The notes beneath the pieces are model-generated. The model was not told where the DNA came from and did not search any database. It was given only the letters and a program-made list of their open reading frames with translations. Made by a program: the position numbers and the translations under genes. Shown piece after piece: positions 1,211 through 8,641 of a DNA stretch of 64,000 nt. Source of the DNA: Dehalococcoidia bacterium (GTDB lineage: Bacteria; Chloroflexota; Dehalococcoidia; Lucifugimonadales; JAGWBF01); NCBI GenBank assembly GCA_034421095.1, contig DAOUKR010000015.1, positions 17,283-81,282 on the forward strand. Reading direction: 5' to 3'. Positions within the stretch are counted from its first letter, which is position 1. The number at the start of each line of letters is the position of its first letter.

Positions 1211-2473
1211 ATGATAGATACTGCAAAGATAACTGTAAAAGCAGGCGGCGGCGGAAATGGCTGCATAAGCTTCCGCAGGGAGAAATTTGTCCCTAAAGGC
1301 GGCCCAAACGGTGGTGATGGCGGAAACGGTGGCAACGTGTACATAGTCGGCGATCCTTCGCTGAACACCCTTCTGCATCTGAAGTACCACAGCACCTGGA
1401 GGGCCAAGCGAGCGGCCCACGGTGGAAGCAACAAGAAGCGTGGGGCCAACGGTGAGGACGTCCGCATACCCGTACCCATTGGGACCGTGGTCTGGAGGCT
1501 GACTGGTGAAAACGGCAGGGAGGCCCTGGCCGACATATCCGATGGGGAGCCTATGATGGTAGCGCGCGGCGGCTCCGGGGGGTTCGGAAATGCCCGTTTC
1601 GCCACACCTACTCACCAGGAGCCTATACTTGCAGAGAAGGGCGAGGAGGGCGAGGGTGCGACCCTGCTTCTTGAGCTGAAGCTGCTGGCTGACGTGGGAG
1701 TCATAGGGCAACCCAACGCCGGGAAGTCCACCCTGCTGTCCGTATGCTCCGCCGCCAAGCCCAAGATAGCCCCCTACCCGTTCACCACCACCGACCCAGT
1801 GCTGGGGGTGGTGTCGTCGAGAAACAAGGACTTCGTGATGATGGAGGTCCCCGGCCTTATCGAGGGGGCACATAAGGGCATCGGGCTGGGCCACGAGTTC
1901 CTTCGCCATGCCGAGCGGGCCCGCTTGCTCATCCACCTCCTTGACGGCATGTCCGAGGACCCTCTGAGGGATTGGCGCCTCATAAACAGGGAGCTAATCT
2001 CCTTCGACATTGCAATGGGCAAGAAGCCCCAGTTTATAGTGGTAAACAAGATTGACATACCGGAGGTTGCCCAAGCATCTCCATCCCTGCGGGAAGAACT
2101 GGAGGCCCAGGGCGTTCCCGTGTACTTTGTGTCCGCCGCCACCGGAGAAGGCGTGGACGTCCTGCTGGGGAAGGTACTGGAAACGCTGGACGACCTGCCC
2201 AAGCAGGACCTGAAAGTGCGTTCCGGGAGGCCGGCTGCCGTTGTGCCCAGAAGGGAAGAGGCTTTCAGGGTGACTTACGAGAACGGGGCATATCTGGTAC
2301 ATGCGCCCAGGGTGGAGCGCCTTATTCCCCTTGCCAACATGAAGGACTGGCGGGTGATGGTGCAACTCTGGAGGGAGTTACAGCGGGTTGGCGCTGCCAA
2401 GGCCCTGGAAGACATGGGGGTGCAGCCCGGCGATACTGTGAGAGTTGGTGGCGTGGAGATGGAGTGGTTCTAG
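1211..2473 (+). CDS. obg: GTPase Obg/CgtA
   Basis: Glycine-rich Obg fold 'KAGGGGNGCISFRREKFVPKGGPNGGDGGNGGNVY', G1 'GQPNAGKST', G3 'EVPGLIEGA', G4 'NKID', C-terminal OCT-like domain. Confidence 0.95.
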   Translation: MIDTAKITVKAGGGGNGCISFRREKFVPKGGPNGGDGGNGGNVYIVGDPSLNTLLHLKYHSTWRAKRAAHGGSNKKRGANGEDVRIPVPIGTVVWRLTGENGREALADISDGEPMMVARGGSGGFGNARFATPTHQEPILAEKGEEGEGATLLLELKLLADVGVIGQPNAGKSTLLSVCSAAKPKIAPYPFTTTDPVLGVVSSRNKDFVMMEVPGLIEGAHKGIGLGHEFLRHAERARLLIHLLDGMSEDPLRDWRLINRELISFDIAMGKKPQFIVVNKIDIPEVAQASPSLREELEAQGVPVYFVSAATGEGVDVLLGKVLETLDDLPKQDLKVRSGRPAAVVPRREEAFRVTYENGAYLVHAPRVERLIPLANMKDWRVMVQLWRELQRVGAAKALEDMGVQPGDTVRVGGVEMEWF

Positions 2474-3084
2474 TGGTGAGGGTAGGCATAATCGGAGGGA
2501 CCTTCGATCCCATCCACGTCGGACATCTGCTCGTCGCCGAGGACGCACGGGTGAGCATGGAGCTGGAGGAGGTTGTATTTATACCCACGGGCCAACCCTG
2601 GATGAAGTCCGGGAGTACTCTGTCGCCAGCCCATCATCGTATGAACATGGTGCGTATGGCCATAGCGTCCAACCCCTTCTTTCGAGCGTCTTCTATGGAG
2701 ATTGACCGGCCAGGTCCTACCTACACGGTAGACACGCTTAGAGAGATGCGCCAAGAGCTGGATGGCGAAGATGACCTCTATTTTATCCTGGGAAGCGACT
2801 CGTCCGAAAAGTTCCACCGTTGGAAGGAGCCGGAGGAAATTCTGAGGCTCTGTACCGTTGTGACGGTGCCAAGGCCGGGAAGCCCGGACCATGACCTGAG
2901 CGGGATAGACCCGTCGGGGTCCGGCAAGGTGGTGCTCCTGGAAGGACCGATGGTGGACATAAGCGGCACCGAGATACGCCGTCGCGTGTCCATGGGACTA
3001 TCGGTGCGCTACCTGGTCCACGATGAGGTAGAGGATTATATACGCCGATACGGCCTGTATGGAGATGGGGAGATGAGCCAGTGA
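2464..3084 (+). CDS. nadD: Nicotinate-nucleotide adenylyltransferase
   Basis: 'GIIGGTFDPIHVGHL' (HxGH nucleotidyltransferase motif) and 'ISGTEIRRR' (ISxTxxR). GTG starts are possible at 2464, 2473 or 2476, overlapping the obg stop. Confidence 0.9.
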   Translation: MVLVVRVGIIGGTFDPIHVGHLLVAEDARVSMELEEVVFIPTGQPWMKSGSTLSPAHHRMNMVRMAIASNPFFRASSMEIDRPGPTYTVDTLREMRQELDGEDDLYFILGSDSSEKFHRWKEPEEILRLCTVVTVPRPGSPDHDLSGIDPSGSGKVVLLEGPMVDISGTEIRRRVSMGLSVRYLVHDEVEDYIRRYGLYGDGEMSQ

Positions 3085-3818
3085 CGGAGGGAGAGCGACT
3101 CCTTCGCCTCGCCCTGGAGAGGGGGGCGCTGAGATACGGCGATTTTACCCTATCCTCGGGGCAAAGTAGCAAATACTACTTCGACGGCCGCTTGCTCAGC
3201 CTGGACCCCGAGGGGGCATACCTCATCGGCAAGGCAATACTCCCCATCCTGAAGGAGGTCGGCGCTCAGGCCATCGGGGGGCCAACCCTGGGGGCGGACC
3301 CCATCGTAGCGGCGGTTGCCCTGATCAGTCATCTGAAGGCCAGCCCTATCCCTGCCTTCATCGTGCGCAAAGATGCCAAGTCCCACGGCACCGGACAGCT
3401 TGTGGAAGGCCCTCTGGTTCCGGGCAGCCGGGTAGCCATAGTGGATGACACGTGTACCACAGGTGCATCCCTGTTCCACGCCATAGAAGCAGCGGAGGCC
3501 GCCGGCTGTAGGGTGGTGAAGGTCATCGCCATCCTGGACCGTCACCAGGGTGGCAGCGAAGAACTGGGGCGCAGGGGCTATGACTTCGCCTCCCTCCTTG
3601 CCAGTACGCCCGAAGGCGAGGTGAGGGTTATGCAGCCCGAATCGGTGGATGCTCCTTCACGGTCGTCCCGGTTCTGGAATCCCCCTACTATCGAGGAACT
3701 GGCATTGGAGCAGGGCGTCCATCCGGTCAAGGACTTGGAACAGGTACTGGGCGGATGGCCCGAGGATGCCGACTTTGAATCATTCCTTGAAGCGATTAGG
3801 AACTCGAGAACGGAATGA
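3081..3818 (+). CDS. pyrE: Orotate phosphoribosyltransferase with in-frame ~60-aa VapB-like antitoxin tail
   Basis: PRPP motif 'VAIVDDTCTTGAS' and 'SSGQSSKYYFD'. The PyrE-like body ends near aa 185. The tail 'FWNPPTIEELALEQGVHPVKDLEQVLGGWPEDADFESFLEAIRN' resembles short PIN-partner antitoxins. GTGA overlap with nadD stop; ATGA overlap with the next gene. Confidence 0.85.
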   Translation: MTEGERLLRLALERGALRYGDFTLSSGQSSKYYFDGRLLSLDPEGAYLIGKAILPILKEVGAQAIGGPTLGADPIVAAVALISHLKASPIPAFIVRKDAKSHGTGQLVEGPLVPGSRVAIVDDTCTTGASLFHAIEAAEAAGCRVVKVIAILDRHQGGSEELGRRGYDFASLLASTPEGEVRVMQPESVDAPSRSSRFWNPPTIEELALEQGVHPVKDLEQVLGGWPEDADFESFLEAIRNSRTE

Positions 3819-4243
3819 CAGCGCCGGAGCAGCTAAGCGGGAGGCACATACTTATAGACACGGACGTTTTCTCTTACATTTTCAGGGGTGATTCCAGGGC
3901 TGATTTTTTCAGGCCTTATATTTTCAATAGGACACTGGCGATTTCCTTCATGTCCGTTGCGGAGTTGTACTATGGGGCATACATAGATGGCTGGGGGGCA
4001 GCCCGTATAGTTCGGCTCGAGGACAGTCTGAAGAGTTATGTTATCCTTCAATATGACTACCCTACCTGCCAACTGTGGGGCCAAGTCAAAGCACAACGAC
4101 AGGCGCATGGGCATGAAATCGGACATGCGGACGCATGGATTGCTGCAACGGCGTTGAGGCATAACTGTGCTCTGGCAACGAACAACACCAGGGATTTCGT
4201 TGACATAGAGGGGCTTGTCCTAATAGGTCCGGGCCTTCCTTGA
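3815..4243 (+). CDS. vapC: PIN-domain ribonuclease toxin (VapC family)
   Basis: Four PIN acidic positions are visible: 'ILIDTDVF', 'SVAELYYG', 'HADAWIAATA', 'TNNTRDF'. Start ATG overlaps the upstream stop (ATGA). Confidence 0.85.
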   Translation: MTAPEQLSGRHILIDTDVFSYIFRGDSRADFFRPYIFNRTLAISFMSVAELYYGAYIDGWGAARIVRLEDSLKSYVILQYDYPTCQLWGQVKAQRQAHGHEIGHADAWIAATALRHNCALATNNTRDFVDIEGLVLIGPGLP

Positions 4244-4307
4244 ATGTTCCTGACTGCCTCAGATACCGGTTGCTAGATTGTAATGATGTTCATGGCAGGA
4301 GGAAGTT

Positions 4308-4805
4308 ATGGCGGACTTGAACTCATTAAACTCAATGGCCGCGTCGGTTGCCGCTCTGCTGAAACAACACCAACAGACGGTTGCAGTGGCCGAGTCCTCT
4401 TGTGGAGGGCTGATTTCATCAGCCCTGATATCCGTCCCCGGCGCTTCGGCCTACTATCTTGGCGGAGCGGTCGTGTATACAGGCATAGCCCGGCAGGGCC
4501 TTCTGGGAGTGGCGGACCATGCCATGGGAGATATGAGGGCGAGCACCGAACCCTATGCCATGATGAAGGCTCGTACTGTGCGTGAGTCCCTGGGAACGAC
4601 CTGGGGCCTGAGCGAGACCGGCGCCAGCGGCCCTACGGGGAACCGGTACGGCGACTCCGCAGGCCATGCTTGCATCGCGGTGGCCGGACCCGTTGAGCGC
4701 GTCATCACCCTGGAGACGGGCGATGCGGACCGGGAGGCCAATATGTGGGTGTTTGCCAGGGCGGCGCTGGATATGCTGGAGCAGTGTGTGAGGGAGGCGA
4801 ACTGA
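4308..4805 (+). CDS. CinA C-terminal domain / nicotinamide-nucleotide amidase (PncC-like)
   Basis: 'TVAVAESSCGGLISSAL...GGAVVYT' is typical of the CinA_C family. SD GGAGGAAG lies upstream of the ATG. Confidence 0.85.
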   Translation: MADLNSLNSMAASVAALLKQHQQTVAVAESSCGGLISSALISVPGASAYYLGGAVVYTGIARQGLLGVADHAMGDMRASTEPYAMMKARTVRESLGTTWGLSETGASGPTGNRYGDSAGHACIAVAGPVERVITLETGDADREANMWVFARAALDMLEQCVREAN

Positions 4806-7387: not shown

Positions 7388-8641
7388 GTGGGCCAGTTAG
7401 TAAAGTATCCTCAAATAACGAGCCTCATTGTCGCTGATAGCCGCGGGAGCATCGGAAACGAAATGGTGTTAATGAGAGCACAAAGCTCTGAACGGACTGG
7501 CCATTATATCAGGCAGCCCAATGGTTATAGAGCATTCGCACCCAAGCCGTTGCCTTTTGACCCGCCGGTGCAAATGAGCGAGGAACTTATTAGCACGCTG
7601 TCAAAAGCGGACCAGGCCTTGGGACGGCTGGACGCCTCTGCTGACATACTTCCTAACCCGGACCTGTTTGTCTACATGTACGTGAGAAAAGAGGCCGTCC
7701 TGAGTTCCCAAATCGAGGGCACGCAGGCCTCGTTGACGGACCTCCTGGAATACGAAGCCTCGCAGGCCCGTCGAAGGTTGCAGAGTGATGTTGTCGAGGT
7801 TGCCAACTATGTTCGGGCAATGAACTATGGCATAGAGAGGCTTGGCAATCTTCCACTCTCAAACCGGTTATTGAGGGAGATACATGCCGAGCTTCTCAGG
7901 GGTGTCCGGGGAAGTAACAAGCTACCTGGAGAGTTTCGAATATCTCAAGTCTGGATAGGACCTTCAGAGAGTGACCTCTCTACCGCTGTCTTTGTGCCGC
8001 CTCCGGCACTTGAGGTTGAGCGTGCCATAGGAGACCTGGAATCGTACATATACAGGGATGCCCCTACTCCGGTCCTTATCAAGGCCGGACTGGTCCATAG
8101 TCAGTTTGAAACCATACACCCGTTCCTTGATGGAAACGGCCGCATGGGACGCCTGTTGATTACCTTCTTATTGTGTCAACAGGGAGCGCTGAAACGCCCT
8201 TTGCTGTATCTGAGCGCATATTTCAAGGAACACCGGGACGAATACTATAATCGTCTCCAGGCCGTACGAGATTCAGGAGATATAGAGGGATGGCTGCAAT
8301 TCTTTCTTACCGCCGTTTGGCGTGTTTCAGATGAAGCTGCGGAGATGGCACGTCAAATCCTGGCAATGCGTGAACAGCATCGTCTCCTGGTTCAATCACA
8401 GGTGGCGGGCTCAGTACACGGGCTTGAACTTCTGGATAGTCTTTATGAGCGTCCATACACCACGGTCAACAGGACAGCTAGCCTTCTCGGAGTGTCCTAC
8501 CCTACGGCAAATAACCTGGTAAACAGCTTCGCTAACTTGGGATTGGTTCAGGAGATTACTGGGCAGACGCGTGACCGCATCTTTATATATTCCCCTTATT
8601 TGGACTTGCTGGAAAGAGGGATTGGGGTCTCCCCATCTTGA
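7388..8641 (+). CDS. Fic family protein (AMPylase-type) with auto-inhibitory motif and C-terminal wHTH-like region
   Basis: Fic motif 'HPFLDGNGRMGRLL'. Upstream inhibitory (S/T)xxxE(G/N) as 'SSQIEG'. The real start may be ATG 7463 or 7472. Confidence 0.9.
   Translation: MGQLVKYPQITSLIVADSRGSIGNEMVLMRAQSSERTGHYIRQPNGYRAFAPKPLPFDPPVQMSEELISTLSKADQALGRLDASADILPNPDLFVYMYVRKEAVLSSQIEGTQASLTDLLEYEASQARRRLQSDVVEVANYVRAMNYGIERLGNLPLSNRLLREIHAELLRGVRGSNKLPGEFRISQVWIGPSESDLSTAVFVPPPALEVERAIGDLESYIYRDAPTPVLIKAGLVHSQFETIHPFLDGNGRMGRLLITFLLCQQGALKRPLLYLSAYFKEHRDEYYNRLQAVRDSGDIEGWLQFFLTAVWRVSDEAAEMARQILAMREQHRLLVQSQVAGSVHGLELLDSLYERPYTTVNRTASLLGVSYPTANNLVNSFANLGLVQEITGQTRDRIFIYSPYLDLLERGIGVSPS

Follow-up and report, generated by a model that had tools for sequence, protein, structure and literature searches.

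PyrE with an antitoxin-type C-terminal tail ahead of a PIN toxin gene in Dehalococcoidia: a probable case of cassette capture at a biosynthetic gene

Introduction

What does it mean when the gene of a biosynthetic enzyme runs on, in frame and without a stop codon, into the start of a toxin gene? The question is raised by a stretch of 64,000 nucleotides (nt) from a Dehalococcoidia bacterium (contig DAOUKR010000015.1, positions 17,283 to 81,282; hereafter the window), in which pyrE, the gene for orotate phosphoribosyltransferase (OPRT), continues into a C-terminal tail and overlaps the gene for a PIN-domain, VapC-like protein. The usual picture of a type II antitoxin is that of a small and labile DNA-binding protein that regulates its own synthesis, and in both VapBC and FitAB neutralisation proceeds through a C-terminal peptide of the antitoxin. 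An initial annotation of this DNA had read the tail of PyrE as a VapB-like antitoxin, and each of the features it named is borne out by the sequence. Our analysis shows that the PyrE fusion is genuine and has been maintained in evolution. It makes it probable that the fusion arose when a lower-GC PIN cassette was captured 3' of the obg-nadD-pyrE genes by the forebear of a small clade of Dehalococcoidia, and that the PyrE-tail protein is the antitoxin of the cassette.

Results

The pyrE reading frame extends 61 codons beyond the enzyme

The fused gene lies at positions 3081-3818 of the forward strand, on which all genes of the window given below with coordinates also lie unless a homologous contig is named. 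It starts with GTG and codes for 245 amino acids (aa). Its first 184 codons (3081-3632) specify a complete OPRT, as judged by the TIGR00336 model, by matches in the Protein Data Bank (PDB), by the ratio of nonsynonymous to synonymous substitution rates (dN/dS) and by an AlphaFold2 (AF2) model. Specifically, TIGR00336 scores 151.1 bits against a cut-off of 106.8 and spans aa 10-173, the profile itself having 173 positions. OPRTs in the PDB match with E=7e-30; solved enzymes such as that of Mycobacterium tuberculosis (5hkf) align to aa 13-174, the alignment stopping a few residues before their own ends. The phosphoribosyl pyrophosphate (PRPP)-binding motif VAIVDDTCTTG and the flexible-loop motif FIVRKDAKSHG are both found in this body, and residues D122, D123, R96 and K100 are among the columns that are invariant in 48 homologues. 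More than 100 close PyrE homologues from Dehalococcoidia and Chloroflexota metagenomes have lengths of 182-191 aa with the C-terminus ...TPEGEVRVV(x), indicating that the enzyme proper ends at aa 184/185; the remaining 61 codons follow in the same frame. The initial annotation had placed the end of the PyrE body near aa 185, with about 60 aa beyond it, and had suggested an alignment of pyrE from related genomes; unfused relatives do indeed stop near that residue, at aa 184-188.

The junction is formed by codon 185, which is CAG (Gln; 3633-3635) in the window and TAG at the homologous position of the unfused locus L011, as seen in nucleotide alignments. This codon opens a 13-codon linker (codons 185-197, 3633-3671; QPESVDAPSRSSR) that is predicted to be disordered and is weakly constrained, and the linker leads into an antitoxin-type tail core (codons 198-245, FWNPPTIEELALEQGVHPVKDLEQVLGGWPEDADFESFLEAIRNSRTE, 3672-3818 with the stop). 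The stop codon TGA (3816-3818) overlaps the start codon ATG (3815-3817) of the PIN gene, so that the two genes share an ATGA (3815-3818) of the kind expected for translational coupling. Ahead of the PIN start there is only a weak purine stretch (GAGAACGGA-ATG).

An AF2 model of the full fusion has a predicted local distance difference test (pLDDT) score above 90 up to aa ~183, with the last PyrE strand at 181-183, and falls below 50 at residues 187-202; the tail that follows is helical at lower confidence, the alignment having contained few fused sequences. The linker has ~13-17 aa and the helical tail ~45 aa. Docking of the tail on PyrE was not seen in this model. When the tail was modelled from the alignment of its own family the mean pLDDT was 81, with short helices, four in all, covering residues 12-16, 21-27, 36-40 and 49-61 of the 62 aa. 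The models thus suggest that a small helical module hangs on the folded enzyme by a flexible tether and would be free for another protein.

Three further PyrE gene models are irregular in other ways. P0260 (400 aa) contains nadD and pyrE as a single open reading frame (ORF; PF01467 plus PF00156), P0200 (245 aa) is a PyrE with an unrelated low-complexity extension, and P0174 (203 aa) has a scrambled C-terminus. These are probably frameshifts or lost stops at 4-nt gene overlaps and unconnected with the antitoxin tail.

The fused frame is kept in four diverged lineages

The identical fused protein is present on three contigs from ENA and Logan assemblies, L001 and L002 grouping with the window as one lineage, and 245-aa fused orthologues are found in three further lineages, namely L004 (an NCBI Dehalococcoidia metagenome-assembled genome), L013 and L012. 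In all four lineages the fused gene has exactly 245 codons with zero indels, at synonymous divergences (dS) of up to 0.6-0.9. The ATGA overlap, which the initial annotation had pointed out in the window, is also kept in L004, L013 and L012; the L012 contig ends 30 nt past the tail, where the ATGA and the first 11 PIN codons are visible. No stops or frameshifts in the tail or the PIN gene were found in any lineage in which the full genes can be seen.

We calculated dN/dS by the Nei-Gojobori method, region by region, for pairs among the fused lineages. The PyrE body gave values of 0.09-0.16, the tail core (codons 198-245) 0.17-0.32, the 13-codon linker 0.2-0.95 and the PIN gene 0.13-0.48, the value of 0.48 coming from the window and L004 pair and the other PIN pairs lying at 0.13-0.27. 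The tail-core values, together with the kept frame, indicate that the tail is a protein-coding segment under purifying selection. The linker appears to be loosely constrained. The low values of the body and its confident AF2 fold suggest that the fused PyrE is enzymatically active.

An open extension of 61 codons would by itself arise by chance with a probability of roughly 0.1, by our own estimate. The extension described here goes beyond chance because its tail matches 245 representative proteins and because the frame is kept in four diverged genomes.

The tail belongs to an unannotated family found ahead of PIN genes

The gene that follows the tail (3815-4243) codes for a PIN-domain, VapC-like protein of 142 aa that matches PF01850 with E=1.7e-17 and 64.6 bits, against a Pfam gathering cut-off of 23.6. 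Its closest NCBIfam models are those of tRNA(fMet)-specific VapC, both of which stay below their cut-offs (NF047863, 61 bits versus 140; NF010285, 35 versus 143), placing the protein outside these equivalogs. It is thus akin to the tRNA(fMet)-specific VapC subfamily without being a member of it. In the PDB it matches FitB (E=5e-10) and the tRNA(fMet)-specific VapC proteins of Shigella and Salmonella (E ~3e-8). Residues D15, E50, D106 and D127 align with D7, E42, D98 and E119 of Shigella VapC, acidic positions which we take to be catalytic, and the motif TNNTR(D/E)F is common to the window protein and VapC.

The tail itself was searched exhaustively with phmmer against 1.84 billion representative proteins at a threshold of E<=0.001. 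This search returned 245 representatives with a best E of 7.5e-15. These proteins span 49-331 aa and carry at their extreme C-terminus the motif FW-x5-(E/D)ELA-x-(E/Q)QGV-x-P-x3-D-x3-L-x-G-x-WPED-x-D-x-D-x-F-x7-R. Family statistics and a Pfam scan were obtained for the best 150 of the 245 representatives, of which 134 have 10 aa or fewer after the motif and 74 have 30 aa or fewer before it. Where members are named, the label is nearly always 'hypothetical protein'. In the window the tail core terminates 3 aa ahead of the stop, and the near-invariant residues of the family (F, W, LA, QG, P, G.WP, F) are all intact. A word-indexed search with the tail alone gave a single match, the profile version of this search gave only short unnamed proteins, and a metagenome scan with an 8-sequence tail alignment gave 3 loci.

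The family is absent from all of the domain databases that were searched, with no match of the tail in Pfam, NCBIfam or PADLOC. Neither the 245-aa protein nor the 62-aa tail segment contains a DNA-binding domain by Pfam and NCBIfam, which agrees with what the initial annotation had noted for the tail. A profile search of the PDB with the tail family gave chance matches at E>=0.5 only, and a Foldseek search of the PDB with the tail model gave nothing below E=7. The lone PADLOC match of the locus was to ShosT (E=0.002); it reflects a trivial likeness of phosphoribosyltransferase motifs and was rejected as a sign of a defence system.

Gene context is what connects this family with PIN proteins. 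A homologous PIN gene lies directly downstream of the tail in the window and in ~13 other distinct loci. Standalone tail proteins of 75-109 aa are located directly upstream of homologous PIN genes in P0001/L003, L009, L017, P0277/L019-20, P0312/L021 and P0343/L022-23, and tail-ended proteins of ~300 aa are followed by homologous PIN genes in L005 and L016. The neighbouring PIN proteins form a subfamily with the signature (I/V)DTDV(F/V)S(Y/F)...AELYYGA, and their genes frequently overlap the tail gene by 4 nt. There are exceptions: L018 has no PIN gene, L008 has an interrupted tail ORF beside the PIN gene, and L006 and L007 have other upstream ORFs. N-terminal domains in the Pfam scan are scattered. 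Those of the classical antitoxin or DNA-binding type are HTH_17 (2 members), HTH_3, MerR, RHH_1, RelB-like, DUF2281 and DUF6364, and there is also a single case each of TIR_2, aspartate decarboxylase and a dCTP-deaminase-like domain. The pattern of homologues suggests that the tail is a portable PIN-partner module which corresponds in function to the toxin-binding segment at the C-terminus of VapB. The label VapB-like that the tail had initially been given therefore holds in the sense that it is homologous to short proteins encoded directly upstream of homologous PIN genes, but the tail stands outside every named VapB family.

Several tail-ended proteins deserve separate mention. In P0021 (268 aa) a TIR_2 domain (E=1.5e-17) precedes the C-terminal tail, and in P0037 (180 aa) a weak VRR-NUC match (E=7.5e-4) does so. 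The proteins of ~300 aa are recurrent, have no Pfam match, share an N-terminus of the form ...L.(V/I)KFEG..(V/I)..GRI...L and stand before the same PIN subfamily; members are L016:13-981, the L005 ORF ending at ~2370, P0009, P0063, P0069, P0077, P0093, P0100 and P0120. There is also a superficial likeness, probably due to chance, between the C-terminus of PyrE itself (SLLASTPEGEV, 3597-3626) and the segment QVLGGWPEDAD (3744-3773) of the tail. A MAFFT alignment of PyrE with short tail proteins placed WPED onto TPEGE of PyrE and was discarded as wrong.

A relative has lost the toxin gene together with the tail

The history of the cassette can be followed in L011, the closest relative without the TA genes, on a 3.0-Mb contig with the same synteny as the window (fmt-dnaA-obg-nadD-pyrE-cinA). 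Its PyrE has 184 aa, and its cinA starts 70 nt after pyrE. Around codon 185 it reads ...GTC ATG TAG as compared with ...GTT ATG CAG in the window. The segment L011:5553-5625 is homologous to window 3630-4307 and contains, between the pyrE stop and the ribosome-binding site of cinA, in-frame scars (SESVEA followed by DFDLCLEAMRSS) that represent both ends of the tail. Two clean deletions separate it from the window, one of 117 nt (window 3654-3770, codons 192-230) and one of 485 nt (window 3806-4290) that includes the entire PIN gene. The notion that L011 represents a pristine empty insertion site was rejected, as in-frame remnants of the tail remain.

A neighbour-joining tree built from PyrE bodies unites the unfused L011 protein (P0154) with the four fused proteins in one clade. 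Its sister there is the fused P0153, with which it shares 94% identity, and P0154 is thus nested among the fused proteins. The most parsimonious history, read from these sequences, would be a single fusion in the ancestor of the clade followed by a single secondary loss, in which the read-through codon disappeared along with the toxin gene and the core of the tail. The absence of PIN, the deleted tail and the stop at codon 185 in L011 fit a tail that exists for PIN and is dispensable for PyrE. The tail is perhaps even mildly costly for the enzyme.

At third codon positions the G+C content of PIN (0.545) and of the tail (0.61) is lower than the 0.68-0.74 found in the pyrE body and in obg, nadD and cinA; for the genes around PIN the figure is about 0.72. 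The cassette (3633-4243) is therefore compositionally foreign, which is consistent with horizontal acquisition. In the more distant L014 and L015, pyrE closes a dnaA-obg-nadD-pyrE block and the downstream genes are different, and in L013 a SelA/aminotransferase-like gene on the opposite strand (L013:4183-5340) sits between PIN and cinA. This indicates that the 3' side of pyrE is a variable spot, and it looks like a hot spot of insertion or rearrangement.

Two other enzymes carry the same tail

Two of the tail-family members are also biosynthetic enzymes, each seen on a single metagenomic contig. A PanD-tail protein (P0007, L024:9-434) is followed with a 4-nt overlap by a PIN gene (L024:431-850), and a Dcd-like-tail protein (P0142, L025:2501-3268) is followed by a 138-aa PIN ORF (L025:3281-3697) that was not called as a gene. 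This result indicates that pyrE is not the only biosynthetic gene at whose 3' end such a cassette has been captured, and it argues for generic 3'-end capture rather than for a logic specific to pyrimidines. The representative library was clustered at 50% identity, so fused enzymes may hide within clusters of unfused ones; the PyrE fusion itself is absent among the 245 phmmer matches, and the enzyme fusions found are therefore a lower bound.

We tentatively raise a wider idea, to which we give a rather low probability, that PIN antitoxin modules without a DNA-binding domain recurrently become C-terminal extensions of housekeeping enzymes such as PyrE, PanD and the Dcd-like protein. If true, this would be a distinct lifestyle of toxin-antitoxin (TA) systems, that of 'piggy-back antitoxins', in which the toxin stays neutralised only as long as a core metabolic enzyme is made and kept intact. 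The essential gene welded to the cassette would then protect it from deletion, and the cassette might sense operon expression or proteolytic stress.

Discussion

How the fused antitoxin could work

The reading that we favour, in which PyrE-tail is the antitoxin of a captured cassette, implies the following sequence of events. A PIN cassette whose antitoxin was a short C-terminal-type peptide without a DNA-binding domain would have landed 3' of pyrE and would be transcribed together with obg-nadD-pyrE. As codon 185 is CAG and not a stop, every ribosome that completes PyrE runs on into the linker and tail. The ribosomes would then stop at the ATGA and restart on the PIN gene. Attached to the PyrE dimer through the flexible linker, the tail would bind and block the PIN nuclease, and PyrE-tail would be the antitoxin or, at minimum, one form of it. 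OPRT and VapC are both dimers, which makes a 2:2 complex geometrically plausible. The lack of a DNA-binding domain means that the usual autoregulation by conditional cooperativity would be absent. Synthesis of toxin and antitoxin would be expected to follow operon transcription and pyrE translation instead of antitoxin autorepression, and the toxin would be freed only upon proteolysis of the linker or tail or upon a collapse of operon expression.

Several points weigh against this reading. Both the neutralisation of PIN by the tail, which the association of their genes in many neighbourhoods suggests, and the toxicity of PIN are putative. PDB profile search and Foldseek detect no kinship between the tail and any antitoxin of solved structure. 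The L012 tail is substituted at otherwise well-conserved positions (FW to SW, P to A), and these changes, taken with the PIN dN/dS of 0.48, make a relaxation of constraint in some lineages possible. A second, unfused pyrE may be present elsewhere in the genome, beyond the 64 kb; within the window tblastn found no second copy of pyrE, tail or PIN. A search of positions 3081-4300 found no sigma-70-like promoter or intrinsic terminator, using an Escherichia coli-type consensus that may miss Dehalococcoidia promoters. Finally, a free antitoxin may be made from codon 184 (ATG or GTG), which would make the fusion incidental.

Alternative explanations

This last point leads to an alternative in which the working antitoxin is a free peptide of ~62 aa that starts at codon 184, the PyrE-tail fusion being a tolerated by-product of the lost stop. 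We regard it as possible but doubtful. The initial annotation had proposed such a start at 3630, and its elements (3618-3632) are indeed there: a purine run resembling a Shine-Dalgarno (SD) sequence, GAGGTGAGGG, at 3618-3627 and an ATG at 3630-3632. Codon 184 is moreover start-capable in all four fused lineages, being GTG in L004, L013 and L012, and a 62-aa product would match many standalone family members (50-80 aa), in line with the short stretch that precedes the motif in about half of the representatives. However, the ATG is the last ancestral codon of PyrE, and the SD-like GAGGTGAGG codes for the conserved E-V-R of PyrE and is found in cassette-free relatives too. Both the SD-like run and the Val/Met codon are set by the PyrE C-terminus ...EGEVRV(V/M) and are therefore no independent evidence for an internal start. 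With no in-frame stop, the fusion is also made by every ribosome that translates pyrE and carries the same tail, and a stop at codon 185 occurs only in L011, the lineage without PIN. A different doubt is whether the fusion is an artefact of assembly, binning or sequencing, in which a missed stop or frameshift has joined pyrE to what is really a distinct vapB gene. The source is a metagenome assembly and odd PyrE gene models do exist (P0200 and P0260), yet different assemblers arrive at the same 245-codon frame with different samples, and they do so in diverged lineages that show many synonymous differences (window/L001/L002, L004, L013 and L012). A missed stop due to assembly error, which the initial annotation had named as grounds for refutation, is excluded by these four independent and diverged assemblies, and we give an artefact of any kind almost no credence.

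It is also unlikely that the cassette is a decaying relic, with a PIN protein and tail that are non-functional and are carried until they are deleted as in L011. This lineage shows that loss of the cassette is possible, L008 has its tail ORF interrupted next to PIN, the window and L004 pair has the elevated PIN value, and the L012 tail is the most diverged. Against decay stand the intact frames, the low dN/dS of the tail core and of the other PIN pairs at dS of up to ~0.9, and the fact that in the window neither the four acidic residues of PIN nor the residues invariant in the tail family have been lost. Nor do we consider it likely that the fusion is a metabolic sensor, in which the state of PyrE (PRPP, orotate or pyrimidine) sets the availability of the tail so that PIN fires upon pyrimidine starvation; in a variant of this idea the tail or PIN might modulate PyrE activity. 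The link of toxin control to pyrimidine biosynthesis that the initial annotation had raised is not supported by our analysis. The physical link between enzyme and antitoxin is kept in four lineages, and the Dcd-like protein is a second pyrimidine-nucleotide enzyme with the same tail, both of which would suit a sensor. But the same tail is found on PanD, which belongs to the coenzyme A pathway, on TIR, HTH and RHH domains and on no domain at all, and the enzyme is separated from the tail by a long disordered linker with no docking on PyrE in the AF2 model.

Relation to known systems

With the fused PyrE taken as the probable antitoxin, the locus can be compared with known TA systems. Like VapBC of Shigella and Salmonella and FitAB of Neisseria, it has a PIN protein that can be aligned to FitB and VapC and that retains the TNNTR(D/E)F motif as well as all four acidic residues. 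As in VapBC, the toxin start lies in a 4-nt overlap with the antitoxin coding region directly before it, and by analogy neutralisation is presumed to use a C-terminal peptide. Unlike canonical VapB, the window protein has no AbrB, RHH, PHD/YefM or HTH domain, its N-terminal part being PyrE. The neutralising peptide would thus be the C-terminus of an enzyme and not a separate product as in VapB and FitA, and it has no sequence or fold match to the solved structures of either. Most members of the 'FW...WPED' tail family are standalone proteins of 50-90 aa or have a DNA-binding or other N-terminus, whereas the partner in the window is a complete housekeeping enzyme. The PanD-tail and Dcd-like-tail loci resemble the window in that a biosynthetic enzyme with a C-terminal tail is followed by a homologous PIN, although the enzymes and genomes differ. 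The locus is therefore a VapBC-like module without one defining feature of VapB, the DNA-binding domain, and with an unprecedented carrier.

Panacea/PanA and NetFlax networks are reportedly built on a hyperpromiscuous modular antitoxin, and CapRel-type systems are said to hold toxin and antitoxin fused in one polypeptide. The PyrE locus is similar to Panacea, NetFlax and CapRel in that a putatively neutralising module would have been recombined with partners and that fusion of TA components is involved. The fused systems of which we are aware join antitoxin modules to toxins or regulatory domains, and to our knowledge never to a core metabolic enzyme of the host. For modular or 'hyperpromiscuous' antitoxin domains and fused single-chain TA systems see also PMC10440598. 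Among the papers listed by our full-text literature searches, none combines antitoxin and PIN terms with orotate phosphoribosyltransferase and none describes an enzyme-antitoxin fusion in its title or abstract, and two large comparative surveys list many PIN and antitoxin fusions but none between an enzyme and an antitoxin.

Set against the usual picture of type II antitoxins, the putative neutralising peptide described here comes from an unannotated family, lacks a DNA-binding domain and is made within an essential biosynthetic enzyme. The arrangement is under purifying selection across lineages, has been lost only along with the toxin and is seen again with other enzymes. Should PyrE-tail prove to be the functional antitoxin, then TA cassettes can recruit host genes for their expression and retention, and the locus offers a natural test of whether lability and autoregulation of an antitoxin are dispensable. 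It would also follow that annotation of such a gene as plain 'orotate phosphoribosyltransferase' overlooks embedded TA systems.

Neighbouring genes

The cassette stands at the end of an overlapping obg-nadD-pyrE chain, as the initial annotation had described it. The chain begins with the GTPase gene obg (1211-2473; Pfam GTP1_OBG, MMR_HSR1 and DUF1967 on the identical L001 gene), which overlaps by 10 nt a nadD-like cytidylyltransferase gene (2464-3084; PF01467, E=4.5e-27) that in turn overlaps pyrE by 4 nt (GTGA). The downstream boundary of the inserted cassette is a cinA-like gene (4308-4805; PF02464, E=1.3e-39) with a strong SD sequence of its own (AGGAGGA). A few kb further downstream, at ~7460-8640 of the window (L001:10383-11561), is a gene with Fic_N and Fic domains, and a DUF3800 gene is located upstream of dnaA in the parent contig; both are possible additional genes of the TA or defence type in the vicinity of the replication origin.

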